DNA from: a virus
Lineage: Duplodnaviria > Heunggongvirae > Uroviricota > Caudoviricetes
Strand: one strand, 5' to 3'
IMG/VR virus record: IMGVR_UViG_2711768052_000007
Location: 1-9,795 of that record
DNA length: 9,795 nucleotides
Shown: one piece after another, positions 1,840 through 8,652 of the stretch
Position numbering within the stretch: the stretch's first letter is position 1
Layout: every line of letters starts with the position of its first letter
Made by a program: the position numbers and the translations under genes
The notes under the pieces: generated by a model
Database searches by the model: none
Told to the model about the DNA's origin: nothing
The model's input: the letters and a program-made list of their open reading frames with translations, nothing else

Positions 1840-2301
1840 TCAGGTGTCGTTTTGCCTGATTAATTTACGCTTCTTTTTGTTTTCATTTGTGTGTTTTTTA
1901 AGGCGTTTTAATGTCAGTTCTCGCCCGATCTCAATTCCCTGCGCTCTGCCCCTAGCCTGTGCGATCTCGTCCGGTGAATAACCGTAAATTTCCAGACCTT
2001 TATTAAATTTTTTTTCGTACTCTTGTTTGTCTTCTTCTTCACCAACCATACTCAACATGATTTCACGCGAATGCATAATGCAATCAAGCGGATGAAGTTC
2101 GCCAGTCATACCCAGTTCTTTGAGTCCTTCCTGTCCTCTTACCCAAAAAAGAACATGTCCTAACTGGTAGCGCCCCGGCTTTCCTTTATCTCCTTCAATG
2201 AATGGCAAACCGCGTTTAGTCCATGCCCTGACAGTTGTCCTGTCTACTCCAAATTGATCTGCTATTTCCTGCTGGCTTAAGAAAAATTCTTTTTCACTCA
2301 T
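1840..2301 (-). CDS. Terminase small subunit-like packaging protein (Nu1-type N-terminal winged-HTH, divergent C-terminus)
   Basis: The N-terminus (LSQQEIADQFGVDRTTVRAWTKRGLPFIEGDKGKPGRY) aligns with lambda Nu1 (KKQLADIFGASIRTIQNWQEQGMPVLRGGGKGNEVLY). The track ORF begins at a TTG (2337); the ATG at 2301-2299 (MSEKEFF) matches the Nu1 N-terminus better. The gene lies immediately downstream of a cos-like site. Confidence 0.7.
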   Translation of the reverse strand: MSEKEFFLSQQEIADQFGVDRTTVRAWTKRGLPFIEGDKGKPGRYQLGHVLFWVRGQEGLKELGMTGELHPLDCIMHSREIMLSMVGEEEDKQEYEKKFNKGLEIYGYSPDEIAQARGRAQGIEIGRELTLKRLKKHTNENKKKRKLIRQNDT

Positions 2302-2379
2302 AATGTTACCAATAATTACTGGTTGAATATTAATCAAGTGGTGGTGGTGTACCCTTTCCCGGAAAGCGTCATAAATAGC

Positions 2380-2440
2380 GCTTTTTTGCGCGTCTGCCGC
2401 CCCGTAACCTTTCGGATCGCCGGAAAGGACCCGTAAAAAA
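2380..2440 (-). other. Lambda-type cos site (cosQ-proximal sequence, cosN-like 12-mer, start of cosB)
   Basis: Minus strand reads ACGGGTCCTTTCCGGCGATCCGAAAGGTTACG|GGGCGGCAGACG|CGC...GCGCTATTTATGA. The lambda genome ends and start, as I recall them, read ...ACGGGTCCTTTCCGGTGATCCGACAGGTTACG|GGGCGGCGACCT|CGCGGGTTTTCGCTATTTATGA. The cosN-like 12-mer is at 2391-2402 (plus coordinates). Confidence 0.7.
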
Positions 2441-2456
2441 GCCGGATTTCTCCGGC
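2435..2456 (-). terminator. Putative intrinsic terminator after the 137-aa gene, overlapping the cosQ-proximal region
   Basis: On the minus strand, hairpin GCCGGA-gaaa-TCCGGC is followed by TTTTTT, 7 bp after the stop at 2463. It may instead be part of cos architecture. Confidence 0.35.
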
Positions 2457-2462
2457 CTTGTC

Positions 2463-2876
2463 TCAGATGGTTTTCAGTATGCGATCGATGTCGTCGTCAT
2501 CACCCGGATTTCTTCCATCGTATTCCATGCCACCTGACACTGCTTTGGGGCTGTGCATATCCATAAAGTTTTCAAAGGCTGCAGTAAGCTCCGGCGGAAC
2601 CTTCGGGCGTTCCTGCTCTATGGTCATGTTCAGGATGTCTCTTGCCCCTTCAACATCGATACAAGGAACATTCGCCATTGCACGCAACATCGGCTGATAT
2701 TCGGCTGCTTCATGAAGCGCCATAATCGCATCAGCGCGCGGCTTGTCCTGTTCTTCCAGTTTGTTCAATCGGTGTATGGCTTCGTAGGTTGATAAACCTC
2801 TGTCAGCCATTGCCCGCGCTTCGGCCTTAAATTTACTCGCCAGCGGTAGCGCCATGATCTCTTCATTGATTGCCAT
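2463..2876 (-). CDS. Hypothetical protein (137 aa, acidic C-terminus) between the decoration gene and cos
   Basis: ORF with ATG at 2876-2874 preceded by AGGGGGGA. The track ORF extends to 2930 but that extension overlaps the upstream gene and has no RBS. Family not recognised. Confidence 0.5.
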   Translation of the reverse strand: MAINEEIMALPLASKFKAEARAMADRGLSTYEAIHRLNKLEEQDKPRADAIMALHEAAEYQPMLRAMANVPCIDVEGARDILNMTIEQERPKVPPELTAAFENFMDMHSPKAVSGGMEYDGRNPGDDDDIDRILKTI

Positions 2877-2889
2877 CGTTCCCCCCTGC

Positions 2890-3225
2890 TTATCGTGCCA
2901 GCGGCTGAACGGATACGCCAGAACCCGCAAAGGCAGCGCATTTTTTCGCGTCAGTATCGACGCTCTCGGGCCAGTTAACGACGGCGATATTGAATATCCC
3001 CGTCTTGTAACACTGTGCAGATTTTTGTTTTGCCGTGTCCAGTGGGTAGGAGGTCAGATAAATGGCCTTGCCTGACTCCTGACCGCCCCACGCCTTAAAC
3101 TCGCCGTTCTCCGTCATCATCAGCGGGGTAAGCTCGGGAATAACTCCGGCATCAGCGGCAAAGTGTACCAGCGTAGTGGAAACCTGCTGTGTACCGGACA
3201 ATAATTCAACATATGGAACGCCCAT
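2890..3225 (-). CDS. Head decoration protein (lambda gpD-like)
   Basis: 111 aa. TPLMMTENGEFKAWGG...CYKTGIFNIAVVNWPES...KKCAAFAG aligns with lambda D (TPLMLDTSSRKLVAWDG...FYKSGTFRYEDVLWPEA...KRTAFAG). ATG at 3225 is preceded by GGGGGA. Confidence 0.8.
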   Translation of the reverse strand: MGVPYVELLSGTQQVSTTLVHFAADAGVIPELTPLMMTENGEFKAWGGQESGKAIYLTSYPLDTAKQKSAQCYKTGIFNIAVVNWPESVDTDAKKCAAFAGSGVSVQPLAR

Positions 3226-3236
3226 AAAATCCCCCG

Positions 3237-4292
3237 TTAACCAATTTTTACGGTAACAAATTTGCGGATATCTGCCGGAACCGGCTGTGGTGCGCTGTGC
3301 GTCTGCACGTATTCAATCGACGGATCGCCGCCCTCAATCCAGTTTTTCGGGTAGTACATGTTTCGCGTTGCGCCAGTTCTTACCGCTTCCTGATCCATAA
3401 TCGCGCCATAGGCCACCAGTCCTTTATTGCTGGTATTACCCAGAACAAGCAAATCAGGCTCAAGGAAATATTTTTCCGTTCCGTCGCCGTCAGTGTATTT
3501 ACCGGAATAAACGATAAGGGCCAGATCGCCAAGATAGCCTTTAAAGCTCACCACTTCGCCCAGGTTTTTACACGCCAGCTCTGCGGCGGATTCTGAACCA
3601 CGGGAAAGATCGTACAGTTCACGAAATTTTTTAAAGCTGCGTAACGTGCGCCATACCTCAACGCCCATAATCATGACGTTGGCGGGGCAACCTGCCTGAT
3701 CGGTGTACAGTTCGATGTCATAAATTGGATCGTGCGTTTCCTTGTCAGCCTCTGACCACTTTTTACCTTGTCCCTGCGTAATGATGTTTTTAGTCGGGAT
3801 TTTCCAGTCGATTTCGTATCGATTTATACCTTCGCCTTCAATGATGTTTTTCCCGGTCGTGACTGCATTCACCGCCAGCCATTCCACACGCGCTTTAATG
3901 GAATTTACCTGGCGGCGCATGTTGCCCGTAATCAGGCGCATACGACGGTATGTAGGGTCGTTAAGCTGTGCTGGATCTTCACCAGCCATGCGTATGATGG
4001 TTTTTGATGGATCGATTTCGTGTTTGGGTTTCATGTAGCCAGGGCGGATAGTGCTTGTTTCGTACCCTTTATCTCGCTGAACCTGGCTACCCACCATAGG
4101 CGAACAAAACGCCGACATGGTGACTTCTTCAATATCCAGGGTATCTAACATGATGTCCTGCGTGTTGAAGGTCGCCACGTTCGGGAAAAACAGCGACGTA
4201 AACAGCGGACTAAATTTAAAATCTGGAATATCCTGGCGATTCAGATATGTAAAAAGCTGATGCGTGTTAAGCGCCTGCGCTTTGTCTGTCAT
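3237..4292 (-). CDS. Major capsid protein (lambda gpE-like)
   Basis: 351 aa with conserved blocks shared with lambda E: FKFSPLF, PGYMKPKHE, EDPAQLNDPTYRRMR, VVSFKGYLGDLALIVYSGKY, VLGNT, YPKNW, GDP, SAP. The start ATG overlaps the upstream stop (ATGA). Confidence 0.9.
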   Translation of the reverse strand: MTDKAQALNTHQLFTYLNRQDIPDFKFSPLFTSLFFPNVATFNTQDIMLDTLDIEEVTMSAFCSPMVGSQVQRDKGYETSTIRPGYMKPKHEIDPSKTIIRMAGEDPAQLNDPTYRRMRLITGNMRRQVNSIKARVEWLAVNAVTTGKNIIEGEGINRYEIDWKIPTKNIITQGQGKKWSEADKETHDPIYDIELYTDQAGCPANVMIMGVEVWRTLRSFKKFRELYDLSRGSESAAELACKNLGEVVSFKGYLGDLALIVYSGKYTDGDGTEKYFLEPDLLVLGNTSNKGLVAYGAIMDQEAVRTGATRNMYYPKNWIEGGDPSIEYVQTHSAPQPVPADIRKFVTVKIG

Positions 4293-4550: not shown

Positions 4551-4580
4551 ATTTTAATCATCATTGCATTTTTTGCAATG
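4551..4580 (-). promoter_or_regulatory. Putative sigma70-type promoter for the head/packaging operon with an overlapping inverted repeat
   Basis: On the minus strand, -35 TTGCAA (4578-4573), 16-bp spacer, -10 TAAAAT (4556-4551). The 7-bp inverted repeat CATTGCA-N5-TGCAATG (4562-4580) overlaps the -35 and spacer. Confidence 0.3.
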
Positions 4581-4675
4581 CAATTGACTATTATTGCAAA
4601 TCATGAAAGTATAATTCCGCGGTTTTACCTTGTATCGTAGAGTTGTTAGCATCAATCACGTTAACGGCATGAAAT

Positions 4676-4709
4676 CCCCCCGGAACCTCATCCCGGGGGG
4701 ATTTTTTTT
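4676..4709 (+). terminator. Strong plus-strand intrinsic terminator
   Basis: 8-bp GC stem CCCCCCGG/CCGGGGGG (4676-4683 / 4693-4700) with a 9-nt loop, followed by A and T8 (4702-4709). Confidence 0.6.
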
Positions 4710-4713
4710 GCGC

Positions 4714-4741
4714 ACAAAAAAGCCGTGAAAAATCCCGGCTT
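4714..4741 (-). terminator. Minus-strand intrinsic terminator after the SSB-like gene
   Basis: On the minus strand, hairpin AAGCCG-N10-CGGCTT is followed by TTTTTT. It lies about 15 bp downstream of the alternative-frame TAA stop at 4758-4756. Confidence 0.45.
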
Positions 4742-4755
4742 CTGTCACTCGTTGC

Positions 4756-5122
4756 TTAAAACGGTATGTTATCCCCGTACGGATCATCATTTCCCGCCTG
4801 TTGTTTTGCCCTGTTCAGTGCGTCAGTAGCCTGGCCCTGTTGACCTTTTTTGCCGCCCGGGCGCGCCGTTCTGGCCTGTCCACTGGCTTACCTGCATGTT
4901 ACCCGCCACGCTCACAAGTTCGCCTTTCTGGTGCTTTGCCAGTGCGTCGGCCTGTCTGCCAAACGCCAGGACGGATAACCACATCGTCGCCGTTCCGTCA
5001 TCTGCCTGGCTGCACGGCAGGGGAACCGCCATACTCGCCATCGCCATTTGTGTCCCTTTGCTGGTGGTCTTTAACTGCGGGTCAGCCACCAGCCGCCCGT
5101 AAGCCGCTATCTGTGCTGTCAT
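4756..5122 (-). CDS. SSB-like single-stranded DNA-binding protein with an apparent +1 frameshift near an A6 tract
   Basis: The track ORF (4823..5122) shows an SSB-like OB-fold pattern (GRLVADPQL..., WLSVLAFGRQADALAKHQKGELVSVAGNMQVSQWTGQNG versus E. coli SSB [40 protein letters not shown]). The +1 frame downstream of the A6 run (4846-4851) continues to ...AGNDDPYGDNIPF and stops at 4758-4756. IPF is the hallmark C-terminal tip of bacterial SSBs. Confidence 0.5.
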
Positions 5123-7498: not shown

Positions 7499-7957
7499 GG
7501 CTTACATCCTCCGTGAATTTTCTTCTGTACCGTGCCTCTGCCACATATTCAGCATAGTCCGACGCAATAATAAGAATATCGTTGCCGGTTCCTGAATGTT
7601 CAGCGGTTCCAATTAAAAAACATGCGGCCTTTATCAGGTCATTAACAGCCAGCAACGCATCGCCTGTATCATCCGGTGCGCCATCAAATTCCTGTTTCAG
7701 GGCATTAAAACGATCATCACGCATAACCCCCCCCCATTTTCACAATCAGCAATCAGGATGGCTTTGGCCTCATTCAGTGCCATATCAGCGGTAAGCTGTG
7801 CGTAGGCCAGCGAATGGGGGATTATTGCCCCTGTATACTCCGGCTCTCTGGTAATGTGTTTTTCTGCGGTTGCTGCCGTGCATGAAATATCAATCAGCGC
7901 GTGCATCAGCGTAGTGAGCGCGGCGGCTGCTGCGTCCGGACGTGGGTTATTGCACAT
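7491..7957 (-). pseudogene. Hypothetical protein split into two ORFs at a G9 homopolymer (frameshifted or phase-variable)
   Basis: ATG at 7957-7955 has a strong RBS (AGGAGGT, 5-nt spacer). The frame runs to a stop at 7699-7697 just after the G9 tract (plus-strand C9 at 7727-7735). The 77-aa ORF 7491..7724 continues in the +1 frame, and one extra G would fuse both into about 157 aa. Confidence 0.4.
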
Positions 7958-8249
7958 GGCGCACCTCCTGACGAATACGGGCGGCGAATACAGCGACACA
8001 ACCGGACGGGCAACGGTTACGCGCTTCGCGTTCTGTCCATGCGGTGACGTGGATGATTTGAGATTCTCCGGCACTCAGTGCCAGAAAACGCCACACAAAG
8101 GCCGTTTGTGTGTGCGCTAGGCGTGGGGTATGCTGTGTTCCAGCCATAATCGTTACCTCGTTTAACGGTTTGGTTAGAAGCCCCGTTACTGCTCCAACAG
8201 TGCGGGGCTTCGTCGTTTCAATTGCTGAATTGCATGTATCAGCCCTTGT

Positions 8250-8346: not shown

Positions 8347-8652
8347 ATGTCCACGAGTTCTGTTAACAATAAGTCACAGCAACTGAATGCCAGATTTCCA
8401 CATGAAGTAGTGAGTGGCATTGAGGCATCCCTACAGCCAGGGGAAACTAAAGCGAATTTTATAGTTACGGCTGTACGCGGTGAGATCGCCCGCCGCCAGG
8501 CAGAAGGAAGCGGAGAAAATCCCCTGGTTTCTTCGCTCGATGCACTGGCGCAGGTGGAAAAAATCGGAGTCAAAGCAGCCGAGGAGATCGGGCAACTCGT
8601 CACCGTCGCGCGTGAAGAACTCCAGCGCCGCAAGGCCAAAGAGCAGGAATAG
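8347..8652 (+). CDS. Ribbon-helix-helix (Arc/CopG-like) DNA-binding protein, putative island regulator
   Basis: 101 aa with a strong RBS (GGAGGTG, 5-nt spacer). The N-terminus (QQLNARFPHEVVSGIEASL...ANFIVTAVRGEIARR) fits the beta-strand plus two-helix RHH pattern. It is the only convincing plus-strand gene in the island. Confidence 0.55.
   Translation: MSTSSVNNKSQQLNARFPHEVVSGIEASLQPGETKANFIVTAVRGEIARRQAEGSGENPLVSSLDALAQVEKIGVKAAEEIGQLVTVAREELQRRKAKEQE

Follow-up and report, generated by a model that had tools for sequence, protein, structure and literature searches.

Organisation of the locus

The stretch of DNA analysed here (the window, 9795 nt) is 100% identical over its whole length to Escherichia coli assembly GCA_001268205.1, contig CXXR01000010.1 (locus L037), and carries on its minus strand a lambda-like cosQ and cosN, placed directly upstream of the rppC gene and with lambda-like spacing. 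The island to which this site belongs is arranged in the order int, alpA, small ORFs, a DUF4222 gene, a RepA-family helicase gene, an SSB gene, a 69-aa ORF, genes for a gpE-like major capsid protein, a gpD-like decoration protein and a 137-aa protein, the cos site, rppC and a 94-aa ORF. An AlpA-like excisionase/regulator, a RepA-family helicase (AAA_25) and an SSB are all present according to Pfam and PHROG, which is the organisation of a PICI. Gene tables place the element between abgR and smrA in L037 and in several other assemblies, and in one assembly the same module occupies another site and is accompanied by another integrase.

The window includes only the last ~43 nt of int, and the real integrase is located just past the window end; in the identical full locus L037, a 409-aa integrase is encoded beside abgR. 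A 398-aa stop-free ORF (9143–7947, minus strand) was considered as an integrase and rejected, as it has no Pfam match and is uncalled in 8/8 loci shown, and it is probably not a gene. The 3′ end of this ORF (7947–8147) coincides with a 66-aa Icd-like repressor gene in all eight of these loci, and a YlcI/YnfO-family gene is found on the opposite strand (8347–8652) in seven of the eight.

Upstream of the cos site is a block of morphogenesis-like genes (2463–4292, minus strand) whose order is common to sister islands. It consists of the genes for the gpE-like major capsid protein (4292–3237, minus strand; Pfam Phage_cap_E, 2.5e-50; PHROG major head), the gpD-like decoration protein (3225–2890, minus strand; Pfam HDPD, 1e-14; PHROG head decoration) and the 137-aa protein (2876–2463, minus strand; PHROG phrog_1999), the last of which partly matches, in PHROG, the C-terminal end of a head maturation protease. 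The gpE and gpD homologues (2890–4292, minus strand) are full-length, although the related island EcCICFT073 is reported in phage-sized capsids.

Major capsid and decoration homologues encoded by an island are also what a capsid-forming PICI (cf-PICI) would carry, in which case the island would have its own terminase and capsid and its cos would be cut by island enzymes; such islands are known in E. coli (bioRxiv 10.1101/2022.09.08.507074). It is extremely unlikely that the present element is one of them. A tblastn search found no TerL in the window, and neither a portal nor a dedicated protease appears in the full-locus gene tables or in the Pfam and PHROG scans of the main window ORFs, the partial protease match of the 137-aa protein aside. 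The gpE-like, gpD-like and 137-aa proteins are the only such components in the full-locus gene tables and among those window ORFs that were scanned, and the sister island EcCICFT073 depends on helper TerS and uses capsids of phage size.

RppC, the protein encoded downstream of cos

The rppC gene (1840–2301, minus strand) encodes redirecting phage packaging protein C, which has 153 aa and is identical at 153/153 residues to the protein in PDB entries 6HLK and 6HN7 (E = 1.7e-101). RppC is encoded by island EcCIEC2733.1 (Fillol-Salom et al. 2019, PMC6739421), and the published rppC cloning primers EC2733.1-1mS and EC2733.1-2cH (PMC6739421 supplement) match the window at 2357 (minus strand) and 1806 (plus strand). 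The rppC start codon is located at bp 102 counted from cosN bp 1, and both this start and the 153-aa length are published for PICI-C. With an identical Rpp (153 aa, PDB 6HLK), the bp 102 start, the primer matches and the same cosQ-cosN-R3-rpp layout, the element in the window and the published cos-PICI-C / EcCIEC2733.1 are the same element; no difference from EcCIEC2733.1 was found, the published work on which consists of sequence analysis and of studies with the cloned protein.

Profile searches (Pfam, PHROG) detect a weak N-terminal wHTH similarity between RppC and the DNA-binding domains of Nu1-type TerS proteins, the Pfam Phage_Nu1 match covering residues 10–53 only and scoring 18.8 bits against a 30-bit cut-off. 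The hallmarks of an Rpp protein (a wHTH mimic of the DNA-binding domain of TerS, a coiled coil for dimerisation and no TerL-binding tail) are instead assigned by identity to RppC. RppC interferes with lambda and phage 80 and binds tightly to lambda TerS, and crystal structures of RppC alone and together with TerS(1-98) reveal that the RppC DNA-binding domain replaces the second TerS domain (PMC6739421).

The closest non-identical homologue of RppC in the loci retrieved (P0002, in L039 and L040) is 155 aa long and 47% identical, with no recognisable cosQ or cosN within 200 nt upstream of its gene. Because this gene is located just upstream of an integrase gene, the homologue may be used in a different context.

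A lambda-like cosQ and cosN near gpE/gpD-like capsid genes, followed by an ORF weakly similar to Nu1/TerS, could also be left over from a decayed lambdoid prophage, with the Nu1-like gene a truncated TerS and the cos a mere remnant, and RefSeq does label some RppC homologues ‘terminase small subunit’. Such an origin is very unlikely, given that the ORF encodes full-length RppC, a protein with a solved structure and with shown TerS binding and phage interference. The PICI gene order of the ~10-kb element is moreover maintained across many E. coli assemblies, in which more than one attachment site is used, and the 172-nt stretch that runs from the likely terminator described below through cos to the ATG, cosN included, is identical in 9/9 other RppC loci examined. 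The island cosB element is also kept between E. coli and Salmonella, and because of this conservation selection, not decay, is indicated.

Anatomy of the cos site and its match to lambda

The ends of the lambda genome (NC_001416) were compared with the minus strand of the window without gaps, using cosN bp 1 at window position 2402 as the anchor. Window positions 2434–2369 (minus strand) match lambda cos from −32 to +34 at 53 of 66 positions (80%). The 66-nt lambda probe has this score at a single place, starting at 2434 on the minus strand; the next best place in the window reaches 31/66, and 100 shuffled windows gave at most 35/66 with the same probe. The alignment to lambda that the earlier note had proposed as a check thus upholds the similarity (53/66 against ≤35/66 in shuffles), and its description of the site as a near-identical copy of lambda cos is apt for the cosQ flank (30/32) but overstated for the site as a whole (80%).

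At the upstream boundary, the gene for the 137-aa protein ends in a hairpin followed by a T-run (AAGGCCGGAGAAATCCGGCTTTTTT; 2435–2459, minus strand), which has a folding energy of −16.6 kcal/mol (z = −4.2 versus shuffles) and is likely an intrinsic terminator abutting cosQ. A consensus terminator scan made no call at this position; folding supports the hairpin, and the same hairpin is found ahead of cos in the sister islands L016 and L017.

The equivalent of the lambda right end (−32 to −1; 2403–2434, minus strand), which contains cosQ and the cosQ–cosN spacer, is identical to lambda 48471–48502 at 30 of 32 positions (ACGGGTCCTTTCCGGCGATCCGAAAGGTTACG vs ACGGGTCCTTTCCGGTGATCCGACAGGTTACG). A BLAST search of 50,697 phage records returned 99 lambdoid records that match the cos stretch, most of them aligned at 93–96% over cosQ and as far as the left half of cosN. 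The cosQ heptamer GGGTCCT (2426–2432, minus strand), the packaging-termination signal in lambda, is identical to that of lambda, is found at the same distance from cosN and is contained within the block CGGGTCCTTTCCGGC. cosQ is a highly conserved 7-bp site (PMC4669245).

The cosN 12-mer GGGCGGCAGACG (2391–2402, minus strand) is the predicted 5′ cohesive end and agrees with lambda (GGGCGGCGACCT) at 8 of 12 positions; bp 1–7 are identical, bp 8, 9, 10 and 12 differ, and the conserved CG is present at both predicted nick sites. The match falls to 3/10 over bp 13–22, where the CGC flank alone is kept, and is complete (12/12) over bp 23–34 (CGCTATTTATGA; 2369–2380, minus strand), an I2-like block in the cosN–R3 spacer that occupies the region of the lambda I2 site, which is conserved among lambda, 21 and N15 (PMC4669245). 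Over bp 35–47, 6/13 positions match in the ungapped comparison, TTTCCGG being present in both with a 1-bp offset (island bp 38–44, lambda bp 39–45). At the lambda R3 position (bp 48–65) only 3/18 positions match and beyond it 11/36, and lambda R3, I1, R2 and R1 are absent from the island cos. The individual features named in the earlier note, which were the 32 nt of right-end sequence, the 12-mer, the CGC, the CGCTATTTATGA block and the divergent spacer, all proved correct in this comparison.

The island and lambda therefore share cosQ, its spacing, the left half of cosN, the CG nick flanks, the bp 23–34 block and a wHTH gene directly downstream. In contrast, this gene starts at bp 191 in lambda and at bp 102 in the RppC island, R3, I1, R2 and R1 are missing, and RppC lacks the TerL-binding C-terminus of the lambda protein. 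With no similarity to R3, R2 or R1, with rppC as the downstream gene and with no TerL in the window, the site does not have the make-up of a lambda-like phage cos.

EcCICFT073 and its relatives have a second cos (cos2), whereas the window has one only. No cos2 was detected in the window, as the next best 66-mer match (31/66) is at shuffle level; the intergenic region after the SSB gene (4565–4822) contains two terminator-like hairpins and neither cosQ nor cosN, and positions 1716–1840 are likewise without a second cos. Two cos-like sites are present in the related islands L001, L002 and L016 and correspond to the published cos1 and cos2, with the second located after the SSB gene in L001 and L002, and downstream of rpp on the opposite strand in L016.

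Comparison with the cos sites of other islands and phages

The nearest relatives among islands are those of the RppA type. The EcCICFT073 cos1/RppA system, compared through the RppA-like islands L016 and L017, resembles the RppC island in gene order, hairpin, cosQ and I2-like block, in its cosB core ACACCACCACCACTTGATTAAT and in having 102 bp between cosN and the ATG, and RppA is 43.65% identical to RppC (PMC6739421). The two types differ in that RppA-type islands carry the lambda cosN GGGCGGCGACCT with the lambda spacer CGCGGGTTTT, whereas the RppC island has GGGCGGCAGACG with CGCAAAAAAG.

Judging from sequence, N15 has the architecturally closest phage cos. The comparison with N15 that the earlier note had called for gave GGGCGGCGTCCG as its cosN and showed that cosQ and the I2 block are conserved, that R3 (GGTTGTTGTTTAATC) occurs once and that the gene starts at bp 89. 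The RppC island and N15 thus have in common a short cosB, a single triplet-repeat-like R element (GGTTGTTGTTTAATC in N15, CACCACCACCACTTGATTAA in the island), a downstream gene that starts near bp 89–102 and a variant right half of cosN. They differ in the R3 sequence and in the cosN allele (GTCCG in N15), and N15 gene 1 is a true TerS that is followed by TerL. HK225 and an E. coli prophage (L026) combine an N15-type cosN with a lambda-like cosB and have both TerS and TerL.

For HK97, also named in the earlier note, no such likeness emerged: its left end (first 700 nt) is dissimilar, with a best match of 28/66. HK97 has an unrelated TerS and is not sensitive to Rpp (PMC6739421); the cosQ and cosN of phi80 are reported to be the same as those of lambda (PMC6739421 supplement).

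A satellite of another type (L027; E. coli O9:H10, NZ_CP062853.1) encodes gpE/gpD homologues together with a full-length Nu1-like protein, a ‘terminase small subunit’. The cosB of this satellite hardly departs from that of lambda, but its cosN is GGGCGTCAGGCG; the satellite is seemingly located beside a truncated phage major capsid gene, possibly inside a prophage.

The putative cosB element

Six Rpp islands were aligned, comprising the window island, the two RppA-like E. coli islands (L016, L017) and three Salmonella islands found via Rpp homologues. The blocks that are invariant in all six are CGGGTCCTTTCCGGC, TTACGGGGCG, the CGC flank, CGCT..TTATGA and CACCACCACCAC(T/A)TGATTAA. The last of these forms the core of the putative cosB and, except for one T/A position, is invariant in the E. 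coli islands (RppA/B/C) and those of Salmonella alike. The phage cosB, absent from the window island, is there replaced by this element common to Rpp islands.

This conserved core, at bp 54–73 (2349–2330, minus strand), is likely the specificity determinant of the site, a putative assignment based on conservation. It overlaps the published R3-PICI, which was proposed at bp 48–65 from four islands in which bp 55–63 are identical (Murialdo & Feiss 2022, PMC9026076). The putative island cosB (2330–2355, minus strand) accordingly comprises the proposed bp 48–65 (2355–2338) and the core CACCACCACCACTTGATTAA at bp 54–73 (2349–2330), and the binding of Rpp-TerS at R3-PICI is a proposal of the same putative kind.

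At the R3 position (window 2338–2350), Rpp islands carry an (ACC)n element. The same bp positions are occupied by a reverse-complement-like (GGT)n element (GGTGGTGGTGGTTTTG) in islands with a 180-aa TerS-like gene (L002, L011–L013) and by (GTT)n in N15; such triplet repeats seem to recur at R3.

The divergent 12-mer, together with the bp 13–22 spacer, had been regarded in the earlier note as the signature of altered specificity. They are no evidence of it, since right-half variants of cosN are common and are efficiently nicked by lambda TerL (PMC4669245), and sister Rpp islands have other right halves together with the same cosB core. From the tolerated variation in cosN and the common cosB core, the specificity element is therefore placed outside the stretch that had drawn attention (2380–2440). 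The wider proposal, that a helper terminase cuts the site and the Nu1-like protein of the island sets the specificity, agrees with the published mechanism of the family, with RppC as the neighbouring gene product and with RppA/cos1 genetics (PMC6739421); it needs amending in that the likely element is at bp ~48–73 (2355–2330) and in that Rpp acts with helper TerS, not instead of it.

The cosN allele and the search for a helper

The right half of cosN differs among Rpp islands, being GACCT in the E. coli RppA type, AGACG in the window island and CGCGCT in Salmonella. Conservation among lambda-like phages extends to cosQ, the CG flanks and the left half of cosN; bp 7–12 often differ, with departures from lambda at bp 9 and 12 in both N15 and phiD326 and at bp 8, 9 and 11 in Gifsy-1 (PMC4669245). 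Mutations at bp 7–12 have minimal effect, and cosN-N15 serves lambda TerL no less well than the lambda site (PMC4669245). Because the right half has this documented tolerance, the variant right half of the RppC island is most simply explained as neutral variation. The RppC-island cosN has 4/12 differences from lambda, more than any variant put to the test, N15 having 2/12, and for this reason it is an assumption that the TerL of lambda or phage 80 would nick it efficiently.

The combination of cosQ with the allele GGGCGGCAGACG was found in 17 loci (9 in IMG/VR and 8 in metagenomes); among them is L025, which is this RppC island again. No TerL homologue is present in the DNA retrieved from these 17 loci, two of which are shorter than 5 kb. 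Where cos is followed by a gene, this encodes just a TerS-type homologue, mostly a 180-aa TerS-like or a 194–200-aa Nu1-like protein. Most of the allele loci L007–L024 are satellite-like contigs of 10–15 kb. Loci of the 194–200-aa Nu1-like type have a lambda/21-like cosB and a gene start at bp ~190, and those of the 180-aa TerS-like type have the (GGT)n element and a start at bp 146. Two allele-type cos sites face each other ~1 kb apart in L008 and L018, and in L021 two are ~860 bp apart on the same strand.

Searches for a helper with the same cohesive end covered representative or complete genomes, and the pattern is split in linear phage records opening at cos. Within this scope the exact 22-mer has no match in IMG/VR, the allele has none in a one-genome-per-species set, and GGGCGGCAGACG beside a TerS and TerL pair was not found in the collections searched. 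A 55-nt probe run against 5,426 complete E. coli genomes gave a best full-length match of 81.8%, with the allele absent in a similar flank context; the top matches were the HK225/N15-type prophage cos (GTCCG) and another satellite.

It has to be asked whether the variant cohesive end is itself the specificity determinant, so that the AGACG right half could be cut only by the TerL of a particular, co-evolved helper and lambda or phage 80 could not package the island. The four differences from lambda in 12 bp would fit this, as would the fixation of the allele in all RppC islands seen, its occurrence in two other satellite types with TerS homologues and its absence, in a similar flank, from the 5,426 complete E. 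coli genomes (best 81.8%, 55-nt probe). Such a role for cosN is nevertheless improbable: lambda TerL is insensitive to changes at bp 7–12, the N15 and lambda cosN are interchangeable and natural variation of the right half is common (PMC4669245), all four differences in the RppC island are confined to the right half with bp 1–7 and the CG flanks intact, and the tight binding of RppC to lambda TerS, together with its block of lambda and phage 80, points to lambda-type helpers.

The occurrence of GGGCGGCAGACG beside RppC, 180-aa TerS-like and 194–200-aa Nu1-like proteins without TerL could alternatively mean that this cohesive end is peculiar to satellites, or that it points to an undescribed lineage of lambdoid helpers with which these satellites are matched, a reading that we consider improbable. 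If this were true, cosN as well as cosB would add to the matching of satellite and helper, or would keep satellites apart from helper genomes at the cyclisation step. The simplest reading of the allele is still neutral variation in the tolerant half of cosN.

Proposed packaging mechanism

Taken together, our analysis indicates that the stretch at 2380–2440 is very probably the cos packaging site of an Rpp-type E. coli PICI, the RppC island (EcCIEC2733.1 or ‘PICI-C’) between abgR and smrA, which would be packaged by the Rpp-TerS and helper TerL mechanism. This mechanism was shown for the sister RppA/cos1 system, from which we infer it for the RppC island. RppA is needed for EcCICFT073 packaging and blocks phage packaging, and it binds helper TerS, to which escape mutants map (PMC6739421). 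Transfer of a cos1 plasmid rises when RppA is supplied, and that of a phage-cos plasmid falls (PMC6739421). cosB swaps and a phage 80 chimera with the island cosB show that the Rpp-TerS complex reads the island cosB (PMC6739421). Helper TerS stays essential, presumably since its C-terminus recruits TerL (PMC6739421, PMC9026076).

In the corresponding scheme for the RppC island, induction of a lambdoid helper would lead to excision and replication of the island, and RppC, as a winged-HTH mimic of the TerS DNA-binding domain, would form a heterocomplex with helper TerS. The hybrid DNA-binding unit would lose recognition of the phage cosB, which would account for phage interference, and would bind the island cosB (2349–2330, minus strand) instead. 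The TerS C-terminus would then bring helper TerL to the site, with predicted nicks at 2403|2402 on the top strand and 2391|2390 on the bottom strand, and cosQ would support termination. Because the ~10–11 kb island would be placed in a phage-sized head, general knowledge of lambda suggests that it is packaged as a multimer.

Those parts of the site that have stayed lambda-like (cosQ, I2, the CG flanks and the left half of cosN) are the ones needed by TerL and for termination, whereas cosN may vary freely in its right half and cosB is replaced.

Significance for satellite–helper biology

Both the RppC-island cos site and the hijacking of the helper terminase by Rpp are already known and published. 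The protein has been crystallised, the mechanism has been described and a 2022 review (PMC9026076) includes an alignment of the same cos with that of lambda, so that the site adds nothing new to the field. What it does offer is an example of molecular piracy of textbook quality, in which the nuclease and termination parts of the helper cos are kept and the recognition element is swapped.
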